The notes below the pieces were generated by a model. It made no database searches. It had not been told where the DNA came from and worked only from the letters and a program-made list of their open reading frames with translations. The position numbers and the translations under genes were made by a program. Shown here in pieces: positions 4,589 to 17,643 of a stretch of 22,733 bases of DNA. Location of the stretch: contig CAXTTL010000056.1 of NCBI GenBank assembly GCA_964247135.1, positions 1-22,733 of the forward strand. Reading direction: 5' to 3'. This stretch comes from an uncultured Deinococcales bacterium (lineage in GTDB: Bacteria > Deinococcota > Deinococci > Deinococcales > JAAFIG01). Positions within the stretch are counted from its first letter, which is position 1. The number at the start of each line of letters is the position of its first letter.

Positions 4589-5815
4589 ATGCCCAGTCAT
4601 ATCCCATCCAACTCGTCAAGCGTATTTTTGCGGCGGGTTGAAATGAAAAACTATAAAAGTATTGGCTCGTGTGATGTTCGTTTGTCACAACCCTTGACCA
4701 TATTGGTTGGACCAAATGGGGCAGGGAAAAGCAATTTTCTTGACGGTCTTCGCTTCATTTCAGATGCGCTTGAAAGTGGATTAGACAATGCCCTTCAGGT
4801 GCGTGGCGGCATCAATGAAGTGCGTCGTCGTACAGGAGGACATCCCACTCACTTTTCAATTCGACTGGAGTTTGCCGTGCCAAATGGTGATGCCTTTTTT
4901 AGTTTTCGAGTTGGAGCACAACAAGGGGGTGGGTATACCATCCAAAAAGAGGAATGCCATATTTCTACGCGTGATCAGCCTCCCAAAGAGCATTTTTATG
5001 CTGTTGAAAATGGTTTTGTTCAAAAAAGCTCAATCAAAACACCACCTGTTGCTCTTAATGACCGTTTTTATCTGGTCAATATATCCGGTTTTCCTGAATT
5101 TCGTGCTGTCTATGATGCACTGTTGGGAATGAGATTTCATAATTTCAATCCAGAATTGATTAAAACACCACAAAGACCGAATCCAAAGGATTATCTCGAG
5201 CGAGATGGACATAATGTTGCAAGTGTTCTAGGCAATCTCGAGAAAAATTCTGAAGAAACGTTACAAAAAATATGGGAATTTTTAGAAAAAGTTGTACCTG
5301 GTGTTAAACGTGTTGAAAGGAAAGTCCATGGAAGTTACGAAGAACTTATATTTCGGCAATATGTTGCAGGACAAAAAGACCTTTGGCGATTTCCTGCAAT
5401 AAATATGTCCGACGGTACATTGCGAGTTCTAGGGATTTTAGTAGCATTATTTCAAGCTGCGGGCAGTAGTAAACCAGTGCCCTTGGTTGGAATTGAAGAA
5501 CCCGAAACTGCACTCAACCCTGGCGCAGCAGGTATTTTGCTTGATTCTTTGCGTGCTGCCAGCCAGAGTACCCAAGTTCTTGTTACGAGCCATAGTCCAG
5601 ACCTATTGGATGATAAAAATATTCATCCGGATTCAATTCTTGCTGTTATTGCCCACGAAGGGAATACACAAATTGGCGCAATAGATCAAGTTGGTCGGAC
5701 TGCCTTAAAAGATCATTTGTATACTGTTGGAGAACTGTTGCGTCAAGATATGATACGACCGATCATTCCTAAAAAACGTCAAATCACCCAAACGCAACAA
5801 TTATTTGAGGCGTGA
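4589..5815 (+). CDS. ABC/SMC-like AAA family ATPase (AAA_15/AAA_21 type)
   Basis: MKNYKSI N-terminus, Walker A GPNGAGKS, signature MSDGT, Walker B IEEPE and H-loop TSHS. Confidence 0.9.
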   Translation: MPSHIPSNSSSVFLRRVEMKNYKSIGSCDVRLSQPLTILVGPNGAGKSNFLDGLRFISDALESGLDNALQVRGGINEVRRRTGGHPTHFSIRLEFAVPNGDAFFSFRVGAQQGGGYTIQKEECHISTRDQPPKEHFYAVENGFVQKSSIKTPPVALNDRFYLVNISGFPEFRAVYDALLGMRFHNFNPELIKTPQRPNPKDYLERDGHNVASVLGNLEKNSEETLQKIWEFLEKVVPGVKRVERKVHGSYEELIFRQYVAGQKDLWRFPAINMSDGTLRVLGILVALFQAAGSSKPVPLVGIEEPETALNPGAAGILLDSLRAASQSTQVLVTSHSPDLLDDKNIHPDSILAVIAHEGNTQIGAIDQVGRTALKDHLYTVGELLRQDMIRPIIPKKRQITQTQQLFEA

Positions 5816-5819
5816 TTCG

Positions 5820-6407
5820 ATGTCCATGATTATTTCTGTGGTAGAAGGGTATGGTGAAGTAACAACTGTTCCTATATTGTTACGACGCATTGCAACCAGA
5901 CTGGAAATCCACAATTTCAAATTTCCCAAAGCCATGCGGATAACCAAGGGACGCTTAGTAAAGGATGAACTTGCACGTATTTTGAATCTAGCAAGTATTG
6001 AATTCCAAGCAGAAGGAATGAGTGGGGGAGTCCTGATCGTTCTTGATGCGGATGACGATTGTCCAGCAGATTTAGGAGTTCTTCTCCGTCAGAAAGCCCA
6101 AGAAGCTCGACCCGATATTCCTGTAGTAATTGCTGTTGCAAACAGAGAATTTGAAGCTTGGTATTTGGCTGGAATCCAGTCGTTGCAGGGAAAACATGGC
6201 TTACCTGATTTAATCACTCCACCAACGAACCCAGAAAACATTCGGAATGCCAAGGGTTGGTTGGGTCAACAAATGGGCAGTTACAGTCCAACAATTCATC
6301 AAGAAAAATTTGCTGCTGTACTTGATTTACAACTCGCTCGTCAATCTCAATCTTTTGCTCGATTTTATGATCGAGTGAGTCAACTGTTTCAAACCCTAAA
6401 CGCATAA
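5820..6407 (+). CDS. DUF4276-like TOPRIM-fold putative nuclease
   Basis: VVEGYGE and LDADDD TOPRIM-like acidic motifs and REFEAWYLA. It starts 4 nt after the ATPase stop, with a GAGG RBS. Confidence 0.75.
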   Translation: MSMIISVVEGYGEVTTVPILLRRIATRLEIHNFKFPKAMRITKGRLVKDELARILNLASIEFQAEGMSGGVLIVLDADDDCPADLGVLLRQKAQEARPDIPVVIAVANREFEAWYLAGIQSLQGKHGLPDLITPPTNPENIRNAKGWLGQQMGSYSPTIHQEKFAAVLDLQLARQSQSFARFYDRVSQLFQTLNA

Positions 6408-6418: not shown

Positions 6419-7789
6419 CTAAGCCGTCTGTAACGCAATTTGCACACTCGTCCCACGCCCAAGCCAACTCGAGGCTCGAATTGCGCCGCCATGCAATTCG
6501 ACGATGCTTTTGGCTATCGCCAAACCCAAACCCGTGCCGCCGTATTCGGCGCTGCGGTGCTGGTCGGCGCGGTAAAAACGTTCGAAAATGTACGGCAGTT
6601 GATCTTGCGCAATGCCAACACCCGTGTCGTTGACCTCGAGTAACAATTGTTGCTCGAGATAACTGGCGCTGATGGTCACGCTGCCGCCGTTTGGGGTGTG
6701 ACGAAGCGCATTGCTGATGATGTTGCCCAGCACCAAACGCATTCGTTCAAAATCGGCTTCAATCTCTGGCAGGTGCGCTGGATACTCGAGCTTGAGGCTG
6801 ATACCTTTGGAGTTGGCGTCGTTGATAAAGGCGTTGCGGCTGGCTTCGAGCAATTGCGCGGGTTGAAGTTTGTTTTTTGAAAGGCGCAACTCTCCAGCGT
6901 CGGCAAGGGAAAGCAATCGCAAGTCTTCGATCAAATTCCTGAGCAGTTTTAATTCGTCCTGCATGGTTTCCAAACGCTCTGGGGTGGCTTGCAGTTTGCC
7001 GCTTTGGATACTTTGCACATACCCCGAAACCACGGTCAGCGGTGTGCCAAGGTCATGGGCAATGTCGGCGGTCAGTTGCTTGCGTTGTTTGTCGGCTTGC
7101 TCGAGTTTTAAACTCATCTGATTGAACGCCGTTGCCAGCACACCGAGTTCGTCCTGCGTCTCGAGTTTGACCTGATGCCCAAGTTGCCCGTTCGTCAAGG
7201 CTCGAGTGCCGTCGGTCAACACTTTTAAGGGTTTGGTCAGGATGCGTGACACCAGCACGCCAATCAGGCTGGCGCTGGCGAGGGCGACAATGGCGGTCAA
7301 CCAGACTGTAAATTGCAAACCCTTTTGAAAAGAGATTTGATACACTGTTAAACTGCTCTCAGAAGGCGTTTCGATCACCCAACCGACCACCCGTCCACTC
7401 ACCATGACAGGACTTTTGGTGTAAAGATTGATATTGATGGTTTCTCGAGGTTTGAACGGTTTGCCAGCCACGATCACAGTGCCGTTCGGGTCGGTCAACG
7501 AAAAGGGCGTGTCGCCGCGAGGAGGCATTGGGGCAGCTCGAGGTTGCCGATCTTGTTCGGGCAACGGTGCTCCCTGACGGGGGATGTCATTTTCCAAGCC
7601 ATCCCAAGAACCCGTTCTGGCGTAATGGTCTGTCACCAACTTTAAAAATCCGCTCGAGCGTTGCTGATACACTGCCTGATTAAAGGCGTTTGTGCTGAGC
7701 GTCTGTCCAAGCCAAAGCGTGGTCAGCAAGCCCAGCAAACTGACCAGCACCATTGCCGCCGTCAACTTCCAACCTAAACTTTGCCTCAT
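6419..7789 (-). CDS. BaeS-like sensor histidine kinase (TM-sensor-TM-HAMP-HisKA-HATPase)
   Basis: Two TMs, HAMP (DELGVLATAFNQM), H-box AHDLGTP, N-box NIISNALRH, DTGVGI, FERFYR and GTGLGL. Confidence 0.95.
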   Translation of the reverse strand: MRQSLGWKLTAAMVLVSLLGLLTTLWLGQTLSTNAFNQAVYQQRSSGFLKLVTDHYARTGSWDGLENDIPRQGAPLPEQDRQPRAAPMPPRGDTPFSLTDPNGTVIVAGKPFKPRETININLYTKSPVMVSGRVVGWVIETPSESSLTVYQISFQKGLQFTVWLTAIVALASASLIGVLVSRILTKPLKVLTDGTRALTNGQLGHQVKLETQDELGVLATAFNQMSLKLEQADKQRKQLTADIAHDLGTPLTVVSGYVQSIQSGKLQATPERLETMQDELKLLRNLIEDLRLLSLADAGELRLSKNKLQPAQLLEASRNAFINDANSKGISLKLEYPAHLPEIEADFERMRLVLGNIISNALRHTPNGGSVTISASYLEQQLLLEVNDTGVGIAQDQLPYIFERFYRADQHRSAEYGGTGLGLAIAKSIVELHGGAIRASSWLGRGTSVQIALQTA

Positions 7790-8463
7790 GCTGTCCTCAA
7801 ACGATAACCGATGCCAAACACCGTCTCGAGCAGCACGGGATTGCTCGGGTCAAGCTCGAGTTTTAGACGCAACTTGCGGATGTGAACGTCCACGGTGCGC
7901 TCAAAACTGTCCAAACCGCCCTCGAGTGCGAGCAGCAAGTCTTCGCGGCTGAAGACTTTGTTGGGCGATTGCATCAAACGCGTGATGATCGCGTACTCGG
8001 CGGGCGTCAAGCTGACCGCCTCACCGTTTCGGCGCAGCAAGTATTCGTCGGTATATAACTCGAGTTCGCCGACCCGCAAGACGCTCGGGCTTTTTTGCAA
8101 CGGTTCGCTGCGGCGCAACACGGCTTTGATTCGCGCAGAGAGTTCCTCGAGGTCAAAAGGTTTGGTGATGTAATCGTCTGCACCCAGCCCAAAACCTTCT
8201 AACCGATCATCTTTTTCGTGCTTGGCGGTCAGTAAAATCACGGGCGTTTGCGCCTCTCGCCTGAAGGTTTTTAAGAACGTGTAACCGTCCATTGTCGGCA
8301 TCATGACATCGAGCAAAATCAAATCTGGCTTTTCGTGGCGAGCCGTGTATAGCGCATTCAAACCGTTGTCGGCGATACAAACCCTGTAACCGTCCGCGCT
8401 CAAATATTCTTGCAGCATCCGCGTTAAACTCGCTTTGTCATCGATCACCAAAATGCTTTTCAT
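7786..8463 (-). CDS. OmpR/PhoB family response regulator
   Basis: Receiver (VIDD, LLDVMMP, KPF) and winged helix (RTVDVHIRKLR, TVFGIGY); overlaps the kinase start (ATGA). Confidence 0.95.
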   Translation of the reverse strand: MKSILVIDDKASLTRMLQEYLSADGYRVCIADNGLNALYTARHEKPDLILLDVMMPTMDGYTFLKTFRREAQTPVILLTAKHEKDDRLEGFGLGADDYITKPFDLEELSARIKAVLRRSEPLQKSPSVLRVGELELYTDEYLLRRNGEAVSLTPAEYAIITRLMQSPNKVFSREDLLLALEGGLDSFERTVDVHIRKLRLKLELDPSNPVLLETVFGIGYRLRTA

Positions 8464-9263
8464 ATCGGATGCACTTTTCCTGAAAGCACGGTCACACTGA
8501 TCGCGTTGTTAAAGTTTCGCAAGACCGTCATGCTGCGGGTAAATTCGGAATCGGATTCAAACTCGAGATTGTCAAATAAACCGTTCAAGTGCTGCGTAAA
8601 TTTCACGCGAATTGGGTCAGCACTGATGCCAACATGAACCACGCCACTCGAGTTAAACAACTTGTGAACGTCACCAAAGGCATTCTCGCTCGAGATTGAA
8701 AATGATTTTTTGATGCCATTTTTAGAAAAAGTGCCGCGCAAAAAAAGACTCTTTCCAAGTATGTTCACATTCAAATTTTTGCTGTGCGGCGTCGCTCGGG
8801 TTGCCACAAAATACCCCTGGCAGTAATTGGGTTCGTGCACGACTACCGCCTTAAAACCGGTGGCTCGAGGCTCGAGCAAGTTCTGGATTGTATTGGCTTG
8901 CAACGCCGCAGGGTCTTGCCCTTGGGTGTGACCCGCCAACGCGACGCCAGACACCACCTCTAGCCCCGCCAGCAGCGACTCGAGCCACGAATGGGTGTGC
9001 GGGCAGGACATCAACTGCAAGCCGTAAGCGTTGATCAAACCCTGCTCGAGCCTCACGCTGTAACCAAGATTGGTCTGAAATACCAAAGCCTTGCCATCAC
9101 GTTTTACGCCAGAAGTGTCCCACGCCAGCAAATAGTTTATTGCTCCACTCGAGATGGTTTTTGGACGCAAGAACTTATACGCGCCCAAAGCCACGGCTGG
9201 CACGAAATAGACCAGCACCAAAGCGAGCAAGATTTTTTTGATGACACGCGATTTTGGAGTCAT
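8460..9263 (-). CDS. Hypothetical membrane-anchored protein with Cys/His motifs
   Basis: N-terminal hydrophobic helix, SCPHTH, LAGHT and NYCQG; ATGA coupling to the response regulator. Confidence 0.75.
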   Translation of the reverse strand: MTPKSRVIKKILLALVLVYFVPAVALGAYKFLRPKTISSGAINYLLAWDTSGVKRDGKALVFQTNLGYSVRLEQGLINAYGLQLMSCPHTHSWLESLLAGLEVVSGVALAGHTQGQDPAALQANTIQNLLEPRATGFKAVVVHEPNYCQGYFVATRATPHSKNLNVNILGKSLFLRGTFSKNGIKKSFSISSENAFGDVHKLFNSSGVVHVGISADPIRVKFTQHLNGLFDNLEFESDSEFTRSMTVLRNFNNAISVTVLSGKVHPI

Positions 9264-9278
9264 GGTTCCCTCAAAAAT

Positions 9279-10088
9279 TTAAGGACGAGGCAAGCGCGGC
9301 AAGTTTGGCGTACCAACAAAGCAACCCACAAAATACGGAAAGCTGTCTGTCGCATAATACGCGTAACCGGCAGCCGTTTTCTTGCCGTTGCATTTGTCCA
9401 AATCGCCAGTGCCAGCCACAAACTCATGCACCTGCCAAGCGTTGCCCGCTCGAGCATCCTGCCCAGGTGTAACGCGCCAACTGCTGACCAATTTCTTGGT
9501 GGTTTTGCAAGTGCTGTCCGCGCAAACATAAGGACTCAAAATTGGGAAGCCATCGAGGGCGTAAGCCAGCACCGTCCCCACTTTTTTCGTGCCTTCAATG
9601 CAATCGGGACGCGCATGAAAGTGATAATCGCCGCGAGGGGCGGTATGACCGTTGCAATAATCCAAAATTCCGTTCAGATACGGGTCTTTGAAACCGTCTT
9701 GCGGGGCTTCGGTTGGACCAAAAATGTACAAACCGTTGACCGTCACCGCAATCGGACCACCCAATGGCGCAGCCGTGACGCTCGAGGCGAGCGCGGGTTT
9801 TAAAGCCAGCTCGAGGTGTAAGTTTTGGGCTTGTAAGGGGTTGGGTGTGGTTTGCACAAATTCAAAATTGGGAATGTTGTTGGAATCAATGATCACGGTG
9901 CTGCTCGAGCAAGTCACAGATAATTTGGGGTCGGGATACCCTTTTTGTTTGTTCTTGGCGTTTGCCGTGACTTTAACAAAACTCGAGCCGCAAGTTGCAG
10001 CGCTTTGTGCTGCGGGTAAAAGTTGATTGAAACCGATCAATCCTGACCCGATCAAAAGACTGGCGAAGAAAACTTGTTTCATCTGCAA
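9279..10088 (-). CDS. Secreted YHYH-domain protein
   Basis: Signal peptide, GPIAVTVNGL, LDYCNGH, DYHFHA, YALDGFPI, DLDKCNG, YAYYAT and FPYFVGC. Start is TTG 10088 or ATG 10082, with a GAGGAG RBS. Confidence 0.9.
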   Translation of the reverse strand: MQMKQVFFASLLIGSGLIGFNQLLPAAQSAATCGSSFVKVTANAKNKQKGYPDPKLSVTCSSSTVIIDSNNIPNFEFVQTTPNPLQAQNLHLELALKPALASSVTAAPLGGPIAVTVNGLYIFGPTEAPQDGFKDPYLNGILDYCNGHTAPRGDYHFHARPDCIEGTKKVGTVLAYALDGFPILSPYVCADSTCKTTKKLVSSWRVTPGQDARAGNAWQVHEFVAGTGDLDKCNGKKTAAGYAYYATDSFPYFVGCFVGTPNLPRLPRP

Positions 10089-10104
10089 TTGCTCCTCGAG
10101 CTTT

Positions 10105-10135
10105 AAAGTACCGAAAAGTTGTTAACGGGTTGTTG
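10105..10135 (-). promoter_or_regulatory. Direct-repeat regulator box plus -10 element
   Basis: Coding strand reads CAACAACC-cgt-TAACAACT-tttcgg-TACTTT; same layout as 14858-14888. Confidence 0.7.
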
Positions 10136-10157
10136 CGAGGCGTCATGTTCGAGACTT

Positions 10158-11090
10158 TCAGTAACACACTTTGTTTTTGCCAGACTTCTTGGCTTGATAC
10201 AGTTTTTCATCCGCACGAGTGACCAGGGTTTGCAAGTCTGTTGTTGATTCAAATTGACTGACGCCCATGCTGATGGTCACGTTCAAATCGCTGTGAACCT
10301 CGAGCCAGTTGTGATGCTCGATTTGTTCGCGCAGCAGGTCACAGACTTTCACGGCATCGAGCATATTCGTGTTGGGCATCAAGAGCACAAATTCTTCGCC
10401 GCCGTAACGTGCCACAAGGTCGGTGGCTCGAGTGTTGACCTGAAAAACTTTGGCAACCTCTCGCAAGACCGCATCGCCGATACCGTGACCGAAAGTGTCG
10501 TTGATGCGTTTGAAAAAGTCGATGTCGGCAATCATCAAGCTGATATGTTGCGGGTTGCGTTTGTTTTGCTCGAGCAAGAAACCCACTTGCTGGTTGAAAT
10601 GTCGGCGGTTGTGAAGTTTGGTCAGTTCGTCCCGAATCGAGAGTTCTTGAATGGTGCGGTTGGCTTCCTCGAGCGCCAGAACTTTGGCGCTCAGCTCGCG
10701 TTGCAGGCTGGACAACCTTAAATGCGTCCCGACCCGTGCCAGCACCTCGGCTTCTTCAAAGGGTTTGGAAATATAATCCAAGCCTCCTACCGCAAAGGCT
10801 TTGACTTTGGAGCCAATGTCGTCGTTTGCAGAAATAAACAAGACGGGTGTCCGCTGGTGCTGCGGCATGGTTTTGATGCGTTCGCAGAGTTCGTAACCGT
10901 CCATCACGGGCATCCGAATGTCCAAGAGCATCAAATCCGGTTGATGGTTCTCGAGCAGTCTCAACGCCTGAGCGCCGCTCGAGACGGGTAAAACTTTGTA
11001 CGCCGCCGCGTTTAAGACGTTGCCCAGAATCGTCAGGTTTGAGGGCAAATCATCGACGATCAAAATTTTTTTGGCAGAATCAAAACTCAT
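10158..11090 (-). CDS. REC-GGDEF diguanylate cyclase (PleD/WspR-like)
   Basis: Receiver (VDD, LLDIRMP, KPF), coiled coil, DELTKLHNRR, DIDFFKRINDTFGH, RATD I-site and GGEEF. Confidence 0.95.
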   Translation of the reverse strand: MSFDSAKKILIVDDLPSNLTILGNVLNAAAYKVLPVSSGAQALRLLENHQPDLMLLDIRMPVMDGYELCERIKTMPQHQRTPVLFISANDDIGSKVKAFAVGGLDYISKPFEEAEVLARVGTHLRLSSLQRELSAKVLALEEANRTIQELSIRDELTKLHNRRHFNQQVGFLLEQNKRNPQHISLMIADIDFFKRINDTFGHGIGDAVLREVAKVFQVNTRATDLVARYGGEEFVLLMPNTNMLDAVKVCDLLREQIEHHNWLEVHSDLNVTISMGVSQFESTTDLQTLVTRADEKLYQAKKSGKNKVCY

Positions 11091-13246
11091 GCCGCTGCCA
11101 AGCTCGAGATGGCATCATATTGGTACTGCCCGATCAATTGCCGCAAACCCGCCGCGATGCTTGGATGCTGGGCGTCAATCACCTCGAGCAATCTTTGCAA
11201 CCTAAAATAATCGGCGTCTTGGCTGGCATCGAACAATTCTTGACGCAAGTTTTGGGAGAGTGGCTCGAGGTTGAGGTCTTGATGTGGCGAGGTTTTGCTG
11301 GGTTCTTGATATTGGTATTTGATGCCGAGGTGTTCCGCCATGCGTTCAAACAGCACGTGTTCTTGAAAGGGTTTGCGCAGGAAGTCGTCAAAACCCTGCG
11401 AGCGCACGTTGGCTTCGTCCTCCTGAAAGACGCTGGCGGTCAGCGCAACAATCACAGTCTTGCGGTTTTCCTCGAGTTCTCGAATGCGTTTGGTGGCGGC
11501 GAAACCATCCATCACGGGCATTCGCAAATCCATCCAAATCAGTTCGGGTTGGTGCTGTTGCCATGCCTCAACCGCGAGTTCTCCGTTGCTGGCTTCAAAG
11601 ACCGTAAAACCGGTGATGGTCAACAAGCGTCCCAGCAATTGACGGTTCTCGAGGCGGTCATCGACCACCAAAATTCGCGGTGAACGTTCCAACACGCCGA
11701 TCACTTGACGCTCGAGAATCAGACTTGGTTTGGCGCTGGCGGCATTGGCGTTGACCGTAAAGAAAAACGACGTGCCAACCCCGACCTGGCTTTGCACGCG
11801 AATGCTGCCGCCCATCAGTTCAATCAAGGATTTCGAGAGCGCCAAGCCCAAACCCGTGCCGGCTTTGCTGTCGATGCCGCTTTGGGTTTGCTCGAAGGTG
11901 GCAAACAGTTTCGGCAGTTCTTCACCCGAGATTCCAATGCCAGTATCGGCAATTTCAAATTTGAGTCGATTCGGCTCATCAAAATCGACTTGCAACGAAA
12001 TGCCGCCCGAATGGGTGAACTTCACCGCGTTGGAAATCAGGTTGATGATGACCTGGCGCAACTTGCTTTCATCCGTCTCGAGGTGCGTTGGTACGTTTGG
12101 ATGCAACTCGAGTTCGACCCGAATGCCTTTCTTGGCGACTTCAAGCTCGAACATCAAAATGATGTTGTGCAGCAGCGCCCGAATGTCGCAAACCTGCCGG
12201 CTCAGTTCGGTTTTGCCCGCCTCAATTTTTGCCATGCTCAGAACGTTGTTGATCAGTTGCAGCAAATGCTCGCCGCTCGAGGACACGACTTGCAGATTTT
12301 CTTTGTCGCTGGCGTTCAAGTATTGATTGCGCTGCATCAACCTCGAAAAACCGATAATCGCATTTAACGGCGTGCGCAGTTCGTGGCTCATGTTGCTTAA
12401 AAACACGCTTTTGGCGCGGCTGGCAGATTCGGCAGAATCTTTGGCGTGCTCGAGTTCGCTGTAAGCGGAAGATAGTTTTTCGCTCATCAGGTTAAAATTC
12501 TTGCCCAGATTGGCAATTTCATCGCTTCCCCGCACCAACACCCGTTCGCCGAGTTTGCCCGCGCCAAACGTGGACAAGGCGCTCGAGAGTCTGCGGATGG
12601 GCTGCGTGATCCAACCGCCCCAGAAAAACCCGAACAACCAGGTGATCGGCAGCGTGATGGTCAATGCCAAACGAAACGCGGCGTTCAGTCCTTCAAGGTA
12701 TGCCAAGTCTTGACGGCTCAGTTCGGGAACGCCGTCGGGCAGTGCATAACCGATGATTTTATCCCCAACCTTCAAGGCGTTGTCTTTAGGGAAACCCTCG
12801 AGCCTCTGCCCTTGCTGAAAATCAGGCAAAATCACCGTGCCATTTTGACTGACCACCCGAAATCGAATCAGCCGCACCCCATCTCGAGGTTGAGGGGCTT
12901 GCGGGCGTGGTGGCGGATTTCCAACTTGGCTTGATGCCATCTGATCTTGTGGCGGAGGAGGGTTTAAGCCGTCCATGCCACCTGGTGGCGGATTTGGATT
13001 GTTGCCTCGAGTGCCGCCCGTGCGGCTGGAAAACATCGGGAACGTCTCTGAGCGCTTGGCGTTTTCAAACGAACCATAGCTGTTGTAGTAATTCAGAACA
13101 TCTTTTTGATAGTTGACAAATGCCTGTGCCACGATGGTTTGGGTAAATTGGCTTTCGATCAGGTTTTTGGCAATGGCACTGATGATGATGGCGGTCAGCA
13201 AGCTGGCAACCAACAACGCCAAAGTGATTTTAGAACGCAAGGACAT
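11087..13246 (-). CDS. Hybrid sensor histidine kinase with C-terminal receiver
   Basis: Likely start ATG 13246 (GAGG RBS). Two TMs, HAMP, SHELRTPLN, NLISNAVKFT, GTGLGL and receiver WMDLRMP. Confidence 0.95.
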   Translation of the reverse strand: MSLRSKITLALLVASLLTAIIISAIAKNLIESQFTQTIVAQAFVNYQKDVLNYYNSYGSFENAKRSETFPMFSSRTGGTRGNNPNPPPGGMDGLNPPPPQDQMASSQVGNPPPRPQAPQPRDGVRLIRFRVVSQNGTVILPDFQQGQRLEGFPKDNALKVGDKIIGYALPDGVPELSRQDLAYLEGLNAAFRLALTITLPITWLFGFFWGGWITQPIRRLSSALSTFGAGKLGERVLVRGSDEIANLGKNFNLMSEKLSSAYSELEHAKDSAESASRAKSVFLSNMSHELRTPLNAIIGFSRLMQRNQYLNASDKENLQVVSSSGEHLLQLINNVLSMAKIEAGKTELSRQVCDIRALLHNIILMFELEVAKKGIRVELELHPNVPTHLETDESKLRQVIINLISNAVKFTHSGGISLQVDFDEPNRLKFEIADTGIGISGEELPKLFATFEQTQSGIDSKAGTGLGLALSKSLIELMGGSIRVQSQVGVGTSFFFTVNANAASAKPSLILERQVIGVLERSPRILVVDDRLENRQLLGRLLTITGFTVFEASNGELAVEAWQQHQPELIWMDLRMPVMDGFAATKRIRELEENRKTVIVALTASVFQEDEANVRSQGFDDFLRKPFQEHVLFERMAEHLGIKYQYQEPSKTSPHQDLNLEPLSQNLRQELFDASQDADYFRLQRLLEVIDAQHPSIAAGLRQLIGQYQYDAISSLAAA

Positions 13247-13254
13247 GCTTGACC

Positions 13255-14850
13255 TCAAGGTTTTGGGATGATTGGCGTGCCTTTGTAACAACCAATAAAG
13301 TACGGAAACGCATCGGTCGCCACGTAAACATACGTGCCGTCGCCTCGAGTATAGCCATTGCATTGATCCAAATCGCCCAAACCCGACACGAACTCGTGGG
13401 CGTCCCAAGCATTGCTGGTTTTGGGGTCTTTGCCCGCCACAACCCGCCACGAACTGGTCAATTTTTTGGTCGTCGTGCAGGCGGCATCGCTGCAAACGTA
13501 AGGCGAGATCATGGCATACCCGTCAAACGCATAACCCAAAACTTGCCCAACTTTGGTGATGTCGGCAATGCACTCGGGATGGGCTGAACTTGGCGAGGCG
13601 TGAAAGTGGTAATCGCCTTTCTGGGCTGGATGTCCGTTGCAATAATCCAAAATGCCGTTGATATACGGGTCTTTGTAACCATCGTTCGGATTTTCGGTCG
13701 GTCCAAACAAAGGCAAACCATTGATCGTGATTCCGATTGGACCCCCAAGCGGAACAGCCGTGGTGCTGGCGGCAAAGCTTGGATTGCGCGGAATGTTAAA
13801 CGAATAGTTTTGGGCTGCCAAGTTGCTCGGGTTGGACATCACAAATTCAAACGTCGGAATGCCGTTGGATGCCACCACAAAACTTGAGTTGCTGCAAGTG
13901 GCGCTCAGGCTTGGGTCTGGATAACCTTTGGCTTTGTTCTTGGCGTTGGCGGTAACTTTGACAAAGTTATCGCAAGGGTTTGCCGTCACCACGGCGTTGA
14001 CGGTCACGTTAAAACTGGTGCTGACCGACAGATTCCCGATGTCTTTGCCCGTGGCGGTCACGCCAGCAGTTCCAGCCGAGCCAAAACTTAAACTCAACAC
14101 GCCACTGCTCACACTTGTACTGACGACGCTCGAGTTGGAACTGCTAGCAGAATACGTGAGGTTCGTGCCATCTTCGGCGTCGTTGAATTTGGTTTTCAGG
14201 TCAATGGTTTGGCTGGCTGCACCCTGCGAAACAGTTACATCCGCGATACTCGAGACGGTGGGCGTTTGATTGGTATTGGCTGGTGTGACCGTAACCGTCA
14301 CGGTTTTGTTGACAGTGCCACCCGAATTTTGAGCGGTCAACGTGTAGGTTGTCGTGCTGGCTGGCGTCACGACTTTGTTCGTGCCAGTGACGACGCCAAT
14401 GCCCTGATCCAAACTCAGCGTGACCCCAGAACCCGTGACCGTCCAAGCCAAATTGCTCGAGCTTCCAGCGTTAATGCTGCTGGGTGTCGCCGTGAAACTC
14501 GAGATGACTGGTGCGCTTGGTGTGGCTGGTGTGACCGTGACTGTCACGGGTTGCGTGACTGTTCCAGCCGAATTTTGCGCGCTCAGAATATAGGTTGTGG
14601 TGACGGTTGGTGAAACGGTTTTACTCGAGCCTGTGACCACACCAATGCCCTGATCGACGCTGAGCGTCACACCGTCACCCGTCACCGTCCAACTCAGGGT
14701 ACTCGAGCCTCCAGCGCTGATGCTGTTTGGTGTGGCGGTAAAACTGCTGATGACAGGAATTTTGGTCGAGGGTGTGGTCGGACAGGCTGTGAGACACAGC
14801 AGAAATCCCAGAATTAGCCCTTGCCGAAAGGGAAAAAGAAAATCGTTCAC
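13255..14850 (-). CDS. Lipoprotein with Ig-like repeats and a C-terminal YHYH domain
   Basis: Lipobox LTAC (Cys23), two PVISSFTATP Ig-like repeats, a cadherin-like domain (FNDAEDGTNLTYS) and a YHYH domain (LDYCNGH, DYHFHA, DLDQCNG, FPYFIGC). Confidence 0.9.
   Translation of the reverse strand: MNDFLFPFRQGLILGFLLCLTACPTTPSTKIPVISSFTATPNSISAGGSSTLSWTVTGDGVTLSVDQGIGVVTGSSKTVSPTVTTTYILSAQNSAGTVTQPVTVTVTPATPSAPVISSFTATPSSINAGSSSNLAWTVTGSGVTLSLDQGIGVVTGTNKVVTPASTTTYTLTAQNSGGTVNKTVTVTVTPANTNQTPTVSSIADVTVSQGAASQTIDLKTKFNDAEDGTNLTYSASSSNSSVVSTSVSSGVLSLSFGSAGTAGVTATGKDIGNLSVSTSFNVTVNAVVTANPCDNFVKVTANAKNKAKGYPDPSLSATCSNSSFVVASNGIPTFEFVMSNPSNLAAQNYSFNIPRNPSFAASTTAVPLGGPIGITINGLPLFGPTENPNDGYKDPYINGILDYCNGHPAQKGDYHFHASPSSAHPECIADITKVGQVLGYAFDGYAMISPYVCSDAACTTTKKLTSSWRVVAGKDPKTSNAWDAHEFVSGLGDLDQCNGYTRGDGTYVYVATDAFPYFIGCYKGTPIIPKP
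14284..14757 (-). repeat. Two tandem Ig-like coding repeats (246-bp offset)
   Basis: PVISSFTATP...WTVTG.GVTLS.DQGIGVVTG...AQNS.GTV..VTVTV starts at 14757 and at 14511. Confidence 0.9.
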
Positions 14851-14857
14851 GCTGGAA

Positions 14858-14888
14858 AGGATATGAAAAAGTTGTTATCAAGTTGTTA
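14858..14888 (-). promoter_or_regulatory. Direct-repeat regulator box plus -10 element of a probably leaderless gene
   Basis: Coding strand reads TAACAACT-tga-TAACAACT-ttttca-TATCCT-7 nt-GTG. Confidence 0.7.
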
Positions 14889-14953
14889 ATGGATACAGTC
14901 GTTTGTAAAGTCATGCGCCAAACAAAGCGCGGCAAATCTCGAGCCAAACCCGA

Positions 14954-15277
14954 TTACTCATTCACCTCGAGCCGTTTGCCCTCCCAAACATCAATAAAAC
15001 TCGAGCCTGCCATCACTACGGCGCTGTGCGGCACACCCGCTGGAATGTTGTAATGCTCGCCAGTTTTCAGGACGTGCAGCACGCCGCCTATCGTCAGCTC
15101 CACCGTGCCTTCGATCACCACGCCCCACTGACCGGCGTGGCTGTGCTCAGGGACAAGAATGTCTTGTGTGGCATGAAAAAAACCGACTTGTCCCGACTTG
15201 CCCGTCAAAACGTTGGCGTTTAAACCGTCCCAGACTTCGACTTTGGTGAATTGACCGATCCAATCTGCGAATGCCAT
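14954..15277 (-). CDS. Cupin domain protein
   Basis: PEHSH..QWGVVIEG and IPAGVPHSA cupin motifs; AAAGGAG RBS. Confidence 0.9.
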   Translation of the reverse strand: MAFADWIGQFTKVEVWDGLNANVLTGKSGQVGFFHATQDILVPEHSHAGQWGVVIEGTVELTIGGVLHVLKTGEHYNIPAGVPHSAVVMAGSSFIDVWEGKRLEVNE

Positions 15278-15555
15278 GTTGACTCCTTTTGATGCTCGAG
15301 CATCTCGAATTTTAAGGGTTGAAGTTTAAACTGTGGTGTTCGTTAAAATGATGCCGACATGATTAAAGGTCAAGATTTCACATTCTACGGCTCGTGTCTG
15401 GCTCGAGCTTAAGCTTTTAAAATGTGAAGTATTATGCTTAAGGTTCTCATACGCTCATTTGAATGAGTGGCTTCTATGAGCCACATCAGGATTTTTTCAC
15501 GTTGATCGAAAGCTGCGAACGTAGCCTCCAGGAGCAGGTAAATTCGGAGGTTCTT

Positions 15556-17643
15556 ATGCAAAAACACGTTGTCAAGGCGCTCATCGTTACCGCTCTGGGA
15601 CTCGGCGTCCCCGCGATGGGGTTCACCATCGCCAAAATTGCTCAATCCCGTTTTCAGGACGTACCTGCCGGACATTGGGCGCAGGAAGCCGTGGATTACG
15701 TCACGGCAAAAGGTTTGATCACCGGTTTCCCCGACGGCACGTTCAAAGGGCAGCAAACCTTATCGCGTTATCAAGCCGCACTGATCTTTTACCGGTTGTT
15801 GCAATCTGGCGCCATGAACACCGTTGATGCCAACGGGCAAGCGGTCATCAACAAAGGCATTGACGATGTCAAAGTCGAACTGGACGGTTTAAAAACCCAA
15901 CTTGGGGCGCTGGAGACCACCAACACCAACCAAGATGGACGCCTCGGCACGCTCGAGGAACAACTCAAAGCCCTCTCAGCCCAACCAGCCGCCACCGCTG
16001 GCACAGACTTGGAGCCACGGGTCAAGTCGCTCGAGGATTTGCTGGCAACCCTCAACACCAAACTCGAGTCGCAACAGGCGGCTGGAAGTGTCGATCCTGC
16101 GCTTCAAGCCAAAGTGACCGACCTCGAGACCCAACTGGCAACCTTGCGCACCGACCTGACGGCGGCTGCACCAGACGCCCAACAATCGGCTCGCATTGCC
16201 GCACTTGAAGCCGACATCGCCACCTTAAAAACCCAGGCTGGCACCGCGCCAACCACCGACCAAGCGACAAAACTCGCCGAACTCGAAACCAGCCTCTCCG
16301 AATTGCAAGACCAAGTTTCTGGACTTGACAACACCGAACTCGCAGACCGTGTGAGTGCGCTCGAGGATCAAGCCAAAGCCGTGGCTGCCCCAGTGGCAGT
16401 CGCCGATCTAACCCCTCAAGTCACCGCGCTCGAGGCTCGAATCGCCAAACTCGAGGCGCAACCCGCCCCAACCGGCACAGACCAAAGCGCCCAAGTCACG
16501 CAATTGCAAAGCGACTTGAAAGCCTTACAAGACCAAGTTCAAGGCATTTCCAGCGCCAACCCAGCCAGCGCCGCCGCAGCCGATCAGGGCGCTCGCCTTG
16601 GGACACTCGAGACGCAACTCAAAGACCTGAGTGCGCGGGTCGATGCGATCAAACCTGCCGGTACAGACCCAGCGCTTCTTGACCAGATCAAAGCCCAAGA
16701 AACCAAACTTGCCGATTTGCAAGCCAAAGTCGATGCGCTCAAACCAGGCACGGTTGATCCAGCCCTGTCTGACCAGATCAAAGCCCAGGACGCCAAACTT
16801 GCCGATCTGCAAGCCAAAGTTGACGGTCTTAAACCAGGGGCGACAGACCCAGCGCTTCTTGACCAGATCAAAGCCCAAGACGCCAAACTTGCCGATTTGC
16901 AAGCCAAGGTTGACGGCATCAAACCAGGCGCAACCGACCCTGCGGTGCTCGATCAACTCAAAACCCAAGACACAACGATTAAAGCACAAGAAGAACGCAT
17001 TGCCGCCCTCGAGGGTCAAGTCAAGGACCTTGCCGCCAGCGTGACCGAACTTTCAGACAAAATTGCGGCACAACCAACCACCCCAACGACAACAACTCCG
17101 ACCACACCAGTCGAGACCACGCCGACCACACCCACCACACCCACCACACCAGTTGACACCACACCAGTGGTCACGACCCCAACCACCGATGTTACTCCCG
17201 TGCCTGTTGTCACCCCACCCAACTTTTATGTCGGCATCGGTGGACGTTACGGGATTCTTCCATCTGGTGCGGCAAACGACAACATTGCCATCAGCGTCAT
17301 GATCGGCTTCAAGCGTTTTATTGGACCGATTGGCTTTCGCATCTCGGGCGATTACCTGGCATTTGCCACCGCCCCAAACTCGACCAACCCAAGCCTGCAA
17401 GCCAAGTACTTCAGCGTCAACCCAGCACTGGTGCTTGACCTTGGAACGTTCTACGTCGGCGCCGGCGTGGGTGGCGATTTCGGATTGCAAAACAGCTTGT
17501 TCATCAACGGCATCGTCGGTCTGAACATCGCTTTCAGCAACAACTTTGGTTTGTTTGTCGAAGCTGACCCGCGTTATTACCTCAATCAAACCACGGACAA
17601 ACTGCGTTTTGGCATTCGCGCCGGTCTTAAATTCGGGTTCTAA
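15556..17643 (+). CDS. S-layer homology (SLH) protein with long coiled coil and C-terminal beta-barrel (SlpA/OmpM-like)
   Basis: GGAGG RBS before ATG 15556, signal peptide, SLH FQDVPAGHWAQEAV..GLITGFPDGTFKG..SRYQ, heptad repeats, PT linker and amphipathic strands ending in Phe. Confidence 0.88.
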   Translation: MQKHVVKALIVTALGLGVPAMGFTIAKIAQSRFQDVPAGHWAQEAVDYVTAKGLITGFPDGTFKGQQTLSRYQAALIFYRLLQSGAMNTVDANGQAVINKGIDDVKVELDGLKTQLGALETTNTNQDGRLGTLEEQLKALSAQPAATAGTDLEPRVKSLEDLLATLNTKLESQQAAGSVDPALQAKVTDLETQLATLRTDLTAAAPDAQQSARIAALEADIATLKTQAGTAPTTDQATKLAELETSLSELQDQVSGLDNTELADRVSALEDQAKAVAAPVAVADLTPQVTALEARIAKLEAQPAPTGTDQSAQVTQLQSDLKALQDQVQGISSANPASAAAADQGARLGTLETQLKDLSARVDAIKPAGTDPALLDQIKAQETKLADLQAKVDALKPGTVDPALSDQIKAQDAKLADLQAKVDGLKPGATDPALLDQIKAQDAKLADLQAKVDGIKPGATDPAVLDQLKTQDTTIKAQEERIAALEGQVKDLAASVTELSDKIAAQPTTPTTTTPTTPVETTPTTPTTPTTPVDTTPVVTTPTTDVTPVPVVTPPNFYVGIGGRYGILPSGAANDNIAISVMIGFKRFIGPIGFRISGDYLAFATAPNSTNPSLQAKYFSVNPALVLDLGTFYVGAGVGGDFGLQNSLFINGIVGLNIAFSNNFGLFVEADPRYYLNQTTDKLRFGIRAGLKFGF
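16651..16971 (+). repeat. 90-bp (30-aa) tandem coding repeat, about 3.5 copies
   Basis: Units start at 16651, 16741, 16831 and 16921: KP(A/G)..DPAL.DQIKAQ..KLADLQAKVD. Confidence 0.95.

Follow-up and report, generated by a model that had tools for sequence, protein, structure and literature searches.

A two-operon YHYH module with sensor-regulator genes in an uncultured Deinococcales bacterium

Two YHYH-led units on a Deinococcales contig

From our analysis of a 22,733-nt stretch of DNA from an uncultured Deinococcales bacterium (contig CAXTTL010000056.1 of assembly GCA_964247135.1, positions 1 to 22,733; hereafter the window), seven minus-strand genes were found, flanked by a cupin gene (14954-15277) on one side and by a candidate defence pair on the other. 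They form two consecutive units, each led by a gene for an exported protein of the YHYH family (PF14240). Unit 1 consists of a long YHYH gene, a hybrid histidine kinase and a REC-GGDEF diguanylate cyclase, the enzyme class that makes cyclic di-GMP (c-di-GMP). Unit 2 consists of a short YHYH gene, a 267-residue protein that we call P267, an OmpR-type response regulator and a BaeS-like kinase. This gene content confirms the original prediction of two adjacent units led by YHYH paralogues. The assembly (5.09 Mb, 84% complete) comes from an uncultured family of the Deinococcota and holds just these two matches to PF14240. The features of the two units are as follows.

6419-7789, minus strand: sensor histidine kinase, BaeS-like, with HAMP, HisKA and HATPase_c domains (Pfam) and a Pro-rich periplasmic part
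7786-8463, minus strand: OmpR-family response regulator with REC and Trans_reg_C domains (Pfam)
8460-9263, minus strand: P267, a 267-residue membrane-anchored protein with a predicted MbnP-like fold (no Pfam or NCBIfam match)
9279-10082 or 10088, minus strand: short secreted YHYH protein of 267-269 residues (PF14240, E 2.5e-33)
10118-10134, minus strand: AACAAC-N5-AACAAC direct repeat, a putative OmpR-type regulator box, 35-52 nt 5' of the short YHYH start
10158-11090, minus strand: REC-GGDEF diguanylate cyclase (Pfam GGDEF 9.8e-46, REC 1e-29)
11087-13246, minus strand: hybrid histidine kinase with a BaeS-type N-terminus and HAMP-HisKA-HATPase_c-REC order (Pfam)
13255-14850, minus strand: long YHYH lipoprotein of 531 residues with tandem Ig-like repeats (PF14240, E 3.6e-36)
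14871-14887, minus strand: second AACAAC-N5-AACAAC box, 21-37 nt 5' of the GTG start of the long YHYH gene

The genes within the units are coupled or nearly adjacent, as had been claimed. By their coordinates, 4-bp overlaps join the BaeS-like kinase to the OmpR regulator, the OmpR regulator to P267 and the REC-GGDEF gene to the hybrid kinase, and the remaining neighbours are separated by 15 bp (P267 and short YHYH) and 8 nt (long YHYH and hybrid kinase). The units themselves lie 69 bp apart, and a consensus scan called no terminator between them. The short YHYH gene could start at an ATG at 10082 or at an alternative in-frame TTG at 10088, and the start of the hybrid kinase was set at 13246 because the listed open reading frame (ORF), which extends to 13495, overlaps the upstream gene.

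The two YHYH proteins score 116.1 and 125.4 bits against PF14240 (gathering score 25 bits) and are 59% identical over 252 residues (E 5e-110). The close similarity that had been noted between their domains therefore holds: all three motifs quoted for them, including GDYHFHA, are found in both, and the motif that names the family reads YHFH in each. As judged by eye, the short protein has a signal peptide, and the long one has a lipobox (LTAC) and two tandem repeats of about 84 residues, for which the Pfam I-set match is weak (E 0.0072). A relative, P0010, shares the lipoprotein and Ig architecture of the long protein at 70% identity. Across 66 aligned YHYH sequences, D135, D143, H148, H156, H158 and D179 are invariant, as are the cysteines C60, C145, C163, C233 and C256, while C33, C189 and C194 are nearly so; YHYH hence carries the His triad with an acidic residue that makes up a predicted metal site. 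The AlphaFold2 (AF2) model of the short protein has a predicted local distance difference test score (pLDDT) of 90.6. YHYH found no match among PDB sequences, and comparison of the model with solved folds was equally null (Foldseek best E 0.38; VIA-wide, no chain at Z of at least 2). These null searches do not establish a new fold. In a tree of 82 YHYH domains, both window proteins fall with three Thermoflexus (Chloroflexota) sequences in a clade with support of 97, and this supported grouping hints at a transfer between Chloroflexota and Deinococcota. The closest Chloroflexota relative, from Thermoflexus (L007 10001-11846), itself has two tandem YHYH genes.

The BaeS-like kinase has two transmembrane segments (judged by eye). 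Its best NCBIfam match, BaeS_SmeS (NF012163), gave 290.6 bits against a cut-off of 500, which is not reached. Similarly, the OmpR regulator scored 172.1 bits with the BaeR equivalog NF007982 (cut-off 380) and reached no NCBIfam equivalog cut-off. The heavy-metal two-component models TIGR01386 and TIGR01387 gave 193.2 against 292.55 bits and 169 against 279.2 bits, both below cut-off. The N-terminal 60 residues of the hybrid kinase and the BaeS-like kinase are 28% identical (E 2e-5). The REC-GGDEF protein has a single REC domain, an intact GGEEF and, as read from its sequence, an RxxD I-site (RATD) five residues upstream. As had been proposed, one branch of the locus thus carries an OmpR regulator and the other a GGEEF cyclase (Pfam). 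No HPt domain was found by Pfam, so the route from the hybrid kinase to the REC-GGDEF protein would be either direct or via a protein encoded elsewhere.

P267 and DUF305 as alternative neighbours of YHYH

P267 contains 2 Cys, 9 His and two Trp residues. The original prediction had described it as a Cys/His membrane protein; its role as a conserved partner of YHYH had been missed. Neither Pfam nor NCBIfam has a model that the protein matches, a scan of 96 members of the family turned up isolated matches only, and its profile returned chance-level rows only among PDB sequences. A search of 1.84 billion representatives found 346 relatives with E no higher than 1e-3. W48 is invariant in this family and C87, H112 and C148 are nearly invariant. 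P267 is therefore a second uncharacterised family, now defined.

We compared 80 loci of the best-scoring YHYH relatives, which are not a random sample and in which related rows are not independent. A hidden Markov model (HMM) of the P267 family recognised a homologue as the immediate same-strand neighbour of YHYH in 19 of the 80 loci, and the pairing spans Chloroflexota, Myxococcota, Binatota and Pseudomonadota. A reverse search from P267 yielded three loci, in two of which YHYH lies upstream, the third being too short to tell. On the tree of 82 YHYH domains the linkage to P267 is scattered and needs 13 changes, at least seven of them forced by supported branches. The two Binatota loci have cytochrome c sequence after P267: in one, a cytochrome c domain is fused after the homologue (L063 4357-6099), and in the other a CxxCH lies just downstream in another frame (L071, about 11808-12737), in a separate gene or after a frameshift.

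A different neighbour, a DUF305 gene, directly follows YHYH in another 19 of the 80 loci, none of which is also in the P267 set. Three of these genes were confirmed with Pfam (L064, L065 and L075), and an HMM built from the three found the other 16. On the tree, the DUF305-linked YHYH genes make up one well-supported clade with three changes. CopM, a periplasmic copper-binding protein of the DUF305 family, is described as the product of the first gene of the copper-induced copMRS operon of Synechocystis (PMC4335983, as outlined there). The window has no DUF305 gene; YHYH and P267 occupy that place. A model of MbnP, the copper protein discussed below, built from Deinococcota sequences found nothing in 83 loci, though this model is narrow.

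The AF2 model of P267 (pLDDT 92.5) shows an N-terminal helix at residues 3-32 followed by two beta-rich lobes. The top Foldseek match of this model was MbnP (7L6G; E 1.2e-4, probability 1.0, template modelling score (TM-score) 0.35), and VIA aligned 179 residues with MbnP at Z 7.2 and a root mean square deviation of 4.7, the widest coverage among the matches listed. The nearest named cluster in the ESM Atlas was likewise MbnP (0.82), which we treat as a lead only.

A complex between YHYH and P267 was also predicted. The median interface score (ipSAE, interaction prediction score from aligned errors) was 0.78, and the highest of three controls scored 0.01; the runs had at least 76% of contacts in common, and the pLDDT of the partner was at least 85. 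Of 157 solved complexes, 116 attain the mark used here, as do 2 of 215 mismatched pairs; both counts are approximate, since our own alignments went into the prediction. On the YHYH side, the predicted interface takes in V78-P84 and I141-Y144, and thus the invariant D143, which precedes C145 by two residues and H148 by five. On the P267 side it takes in the AFG motif, the nearly invariant G197 and the strands to either side of C87 and C148. Such a prediction is support for the binding of YHYH and P267 as a heterodimer, not proof of it.

Linkage to two-component genes, a common box and relatives of the locus

We then estimated how often YHYH genes are accompanied by two-component genes, which were sought by tblastn with the kinases and regulators of the window as queries. 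Such a gene lies within 1 kb of the YHYH cassette in 15 of the 80 loci, and 65 have none adjacent. The density of hits falls steeply with distance: the first 2 kb hold 27 merged hits in 279.6 kb, and the stretch from 3 to 10 kb holds 5 in 674.7 kb, a difference of about 13-fold. Of the 15 linked loci, 8 have YHYH alone, 3 have P267 and 4 have DUF305. The regulators are of the OmpR type in Chloroflexota, Actinomycetota and a Methylococcaceae genome, and of the NtrC type in L012, L023 and L049. On the YHYH tree the linkage requires at least 11 changes, and thus occurs in at least that many separate lineages, against a mean of 15.7 and a minimum of 12 in 200 shuffles; it cannot go back to a single inherited event. 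YHYH and two-component genes are truly linked. The original prediction had named a neighbourhood survey as its check, and the co-occurrence found here is far above the level expected from the flanks of the YHYH genes.

Both units are preceded by the same AACAAC-N5-AACAAC repeat, on the coding strand and before the YHYH start. Direct repeats one helical turn apart, with an 11-bp period, are typical of the operators of the OmpR/PhoB family. The exact pattern occurs five times in the genome, against six for a reversed-pattern control; three of the five copies are inside ORFs, which leaves the pair in front of the YHYH genes as the sole intergenic copies. Apart from the box and the TTTT...TA that comes after it, the two upstream regions do not align, which argues that the motif is not a mere leftover of duplication. 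The presence of an OmpR-type box in front of both YHYH genes marks these genes as outputs, and the box before unit 1, being identical, suggests that the transcriptional branch probably also controls the second YHYH gene and the c-di-GMP output. The OmpR regulator of the window would presumably bind these boxes. In two YHYH-regulator-kinase operons (L020 and L021) a TTAnCn-N5-TTAGCn repeat with the same 11-bp period lies 5' of YHYH, and in a same-genus relative without the regulator (G005) the box has decayed. L005, despite an identical gene order and a regulator that is 55% identical, does not carry the AACAAC box. Elsewhere, on contig C30 of G000 (15626-17187), a one-mismatch box, AGCAACCTTCAAACAAC, lies 48 nt 5' of an outer-membrane efflux gene, which may well be chance; two more genes come after this gene on its strand, apparently as a non-RND operon, and upstream, on the opposite strand, there is a likely regulator-kinase pair.

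Relatives of the locus were sought in 31 genomes, i.e., its own and 30 relatives. In a phylum-level sample all the genomes drawn belong to the same order as that of the window, and the sole control genome to match was Deinococcus radiodurans. P267 was found in three of the 31 genomes, its own and the relatives G005 and G010, and the YHYH subfamily of the window is intact only in G000 and G005. The gene order at the syntenic site of G005 is cupin, short YHYH (82% identical), P267 (79%), a regulator remnant, YbjN and DinB. The remnant comprises 35 residues of the OmpR regulator after P267 (L086 11602-11706), and no kinase, unit 1 or defence pair accompanies it, so that the sequence records a deletion of the two-component genes in this same-genus relative. 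G010 (L087 10749-12115) has a P267 homologue (59-61%) and then a regulator orthologue (75%) at a contig end, with no YHYH upstream; its other contigs hold pieces of YHYH interrupted by in-frame TGA stops.

Unit 1 also seems to be conserved as a trio. Here co-residence on a contig was taken from the best hits of three protein searches that agree in contig size and source, and adjacency is deduced from that agreement. A 14,595-bp contig from JGI would carry short YHYH (88%), hybrid kinase (86%) and REC-GGDEF (89%) orthologues; a 30,226-bp contig from NCBI, a YHYH member of the same cluster with the kinase (87%) and REC-GGDEF (85%); and a 49,746-bp contig from JGI, long YHYH (70%), kinase (60% over the sensor part) and REC-GGDEF (70%). 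Relatives of the hybrid kinase and the REC-GGDEF protein also share contigs of 8,058, 289,538 and 5,863 bp.

The flanks of the module hold other features. An AAA_21 ATPase and a DUF4276 protein (4589-6407, plus strand) match the PADLOC pair HEC-01A/HEC-01B (E 1.2e-150 and 2.1e-62), and the GC content drops to 0.40 at 5001-6000, within the region of this pair. On the other side, a 726-residue protein (15463-17643, plus strand) has an SLH domain and a long coiled-coil-like stretch, and the strand bias is strong at 16001-17000 (GC skew -0.18, AT skew 0.33).

A proposed regulated metal-handling module and the systems it resembles

The explanation that we prefer, and that we regard as evenly poised between right and wrong, is that the locus is a two-operon accessory envelope module in which the YHYH proteins are regulated effectors that handle a metal, most likely copper, in an autoregulated arrangement resembling copMRS. 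The BaeS-like kinase would be activated by a signal in the periplasm, which is probably copper or a different transition metal but may be envelope stress. The phosphorylated OmpR regulator would then bind the box over the -35 region and switch on its own operon, which would supply the secreted YHYH protein, with its His3/Asp site, and the membrane-anchored, MbnP-like P267 as a complex. The same box would turn on unit 1, and thereby a surface-tethered YHYH protein and the hybrid kinase, whose coupled REC-GGDEF protein would make c-di-GMP. The periplasmic task of the YHYH proteins would most likely be to bind copper (or a different transition metal), to oxidise it or to hand it on. A copper or metal role is proposed because of the analogy with copMRS of Synechocystis and with MbnP/MbnH pairs. 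The original prediction had raised metal or redox state as the signal, and its metal theme fits the families of the partners, i.e., the MbnP-like fold and DUF305/CopM. It had also viewed the YHYH proteins as accessory sensors or effectors. Of these, effectors fit better, and an obligate sensor is hard to reconcile with the 65 loci that have no two-component gene adjacent, with G005 and with the OmpR-type boxes. From our literature search, no paper was found that ties YHYH to copper, MbnP, DUF305 or two-component systems. A diatom survey merely lists the family, and a 2026 preprint presents it as one without metal-binding or enzymatic characterisation (10.64898/2026.10.18.759936).

Several observations weigh against the metal-handling explanation. 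The kinase scores higher with BaeS, an envelope-stress model, than with the heavy-metal kinase models, under the cut-offs of both, and with a single His and no Cys in its periplasmic part it gives no evident sign of direct metal sensing. The fold match of P267 to MbnP is middling at the TM-score given above, and VIA ties MbnP with a fimbrial protein (3sy6, Z 7.3), which covers only 115 residues of P267. No sequence homology was detected between P267 and nine Deinococcota MbnP-like proteins (hhalign probability 6%), and P267 together with 95 relatives gave no match to the MbnP models TIGR04052 and PF20243. The WxW motif is absent from P267. The window has no MbnH (CCP_MauG) gene, the two CCP_MauG genes of the genome being on other contigs. 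Since sequence homology, WxW and a nearby MbnH are all missing, P267 is, as far as its model goes, MbnP-like in fold only and not a member of the MbnP family. The box is known from two sites in one genome, a promoter scan called none at either, and the 69 one-mismatch matches, of which 15 are intergenic, yield no convincing regulon; the genes behind five such boxes that were examined encode a dioxygenase-like protein, an outer-membrane efflux protein, a TPR protein, threonyl-tRNA synthetase and a DUF4886 protein. Finally, 8 of the 80 loci have sulfatase genes no more than a few kb away from YHYH, in several of them directly adjacent, and in Pseudoalteromonas sp. C2R02 a 789-residue ASST-YHYH fusion (L026 8330-11521) is followed by a P267 homologue. 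This sulfatase and ASST context points to a different chemistry, for which the copper reading does not account. The eight sulfatase loci are L004, L022, L024, L036, L045, L054, L067 and L073, which is a raw count, and the fusion may explain the label 'arylsulfate sulfotransferase' on some relatives in one source.

A bolder form of the metal-handling explanation is possible, although we consider it rather doubtful. YHYH would be a new periplasmic copper family of enzymes or chaperones, with MbnP/MbnH, P267 and CopM/DUF305 as interchangeable partners, that has been wired repeatedly to dedicated sensors and here couples envelope copper to both transcription and c-di-GMP.

The YHYH proteins could instead act upstream of the kinases, in a three-component sensing system in which YHYH binds the periplasmic domain of the adjacent kinase, sets its activity and is the true metal or redox receptor. 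It is YHYH, and not P267 or DUF305, that is the constant neighbour of the two-component genes; each kinase of the window follows its own YHYH paralogue, and both have a BaeS-type N-terminus with no obvious metal ligands. The trio of unit 1 has orthologues apparently on one contig (that of 49,746 bp), and the N-termini of YHYH-linked kinases from four phyla are weakly similar. However, this similarity includes HAMP and may reflect only the broad BaeS/CusS class, most YHYH loci have no adjacent two-component genes, G005 retains YHYH and P267 after the loss of the kinase, and the boxes 5' of both YHYH genes make them targets of the regulator. We therefore regard a receptor role as unlikely in its strict form. 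It is compatible with regulated effectors if YHYH feeds back on the kinase, and such feedback is possible and would reconcile the sensor and target readings.

Another chemistry has been proposed for the same residues. Iyer et al. (2021) predicted a Zn hydrolase for the YHYH domains of phage tails from a His triad and an Asp (PMC7824862), and these residues are invariant here. YHYH could accordingly use Zn to hydrolyse the cell wall or some surface polymer, with P267 tethering or restraining it at the membrane and the BaeS-like system sensing envelope damage and not a metal. The best scores of the kinase and the regulator are indeed with envelope-stress models, the short YHYH protein is unanchored and has an anchored partner while the long one is a lipoprotein without a partner, and sulfatases, the ASST fusion and carbohydrate-binding neighbours occur at some loci. 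Nevertheless, the YHYH model matches no known hydrolase fold in the Foldseek and VIA searches described above, the alternative partners (DUF305/CopM and the MbnP-like proteins) are metal-binding families and not inhibitors, and no cell-wall genes are conserved around the cassette, which makes a hydrolase quite unlikely in our estimation. That unrelated genes were merely gathered in a variable island with no common function is scarcely credible: the island does vary within the genus, with unit 1, the kinase and the HEC-01 pair missing from G005, and only 3 of 31 genomes hold P267, but the overlapping stop and start codons within the units, the AACAAC box common to both, the 13-fold enrichment with repeated independent linkage, and the orthologues that apparently share contigs in three other assemblies all speak against this.

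What is new here is the P267 family, its predicted complex with YHYH, DUF305 as the alternative neighbour, the quantified and repeated linkage to two-component genes, and the common box. YHYH, an orphan family widespread in bacteria, phages and diatoms, thereby gains a context that can be tested, and several of its carriers are cultured organisms in which this could be done. Among them are Salinibacterium amurskyense DSM 16400, Demequina aurantiaca and Microbacterium aquimaris, each with YHYH and DUF305, and Pseudoalteromonas sp. C2R02 with its ASST-YHYH fusion and P267. The alternative partners tied to copper, the confidently predicted heterodimer and the repeated recruitment of sensors and regulators lead to a concrete hypothesis. 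The design of the locus further suggests that one OmpR regulator may drive both the transcriptional and the c-di-GMP branch.

Several known systems can be compared with the module. The REC-GGDEF protein resembles WspR and PleD-type proteins in having REC with GGDEF and an intact GG(D/E)EF, and differs from PleD in having one REC domain and not two. HbpS-SenS-SenR and LpqB-MtrAB are three-component systems in which an extracytoplasmic accessory protein acts on the kinase. The window is alike in encoding an exported protein in the same operon as a kinase and a regulator. To our knowledge, accessory proteins of the HbpS and LpqB type occur only with their kinases, whereas YHYH occurs mostly without two-component genes (65 of 80 loci). 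The window shares with BaeSR and CusRS-CopRS the domain order, the best model matches, an operon with likely targets and a direct repeat of 11 bp; unlike in those systems, all cut-offs are missed and the targets are YHYH genes and not efflux pumps. The sequence of the box also differs from the published BaeSR and CusRS-CopRS boxes that we know of.

MbnP and MbnH of Methylosinus trichosporium OB3b (7L6G) likewise form a periplasmic pair, of a beta-rich protein of about 250 residues and an adjacent metalloenzyme-like partner. MbnP is reported to bind copper at a site of His, Met and a kynurenine that MbnH makes from Trp (PMC11951088). In contrast, the partner of P267 is YHYH and not a dihaem peroxidase, and P267 has an N-terminal membrane helix and its own conserved W48, C87, H112 and C148, with no WxW. 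The copMRS operon of Synechocystis sp. PCC 6803 has no counterpart of the second operon of the window with its c-di-GMP output, and the window, for its part, has no DUF305 and no copBAC-like efflux target was found. The two are alike in plan, however. In copMRS, an exported metal-handling gene comes first, together with the OmpR regulator and membrane kinase that control it (PMC4335983, as described there); in the window, an exported, putatively metal-binding protein, an OmpR regulator and a kinase are encoded in one operon; and in 4 of the 19 YHYH-DUF305 loci a regulator-kinase pair is adjacent as well.

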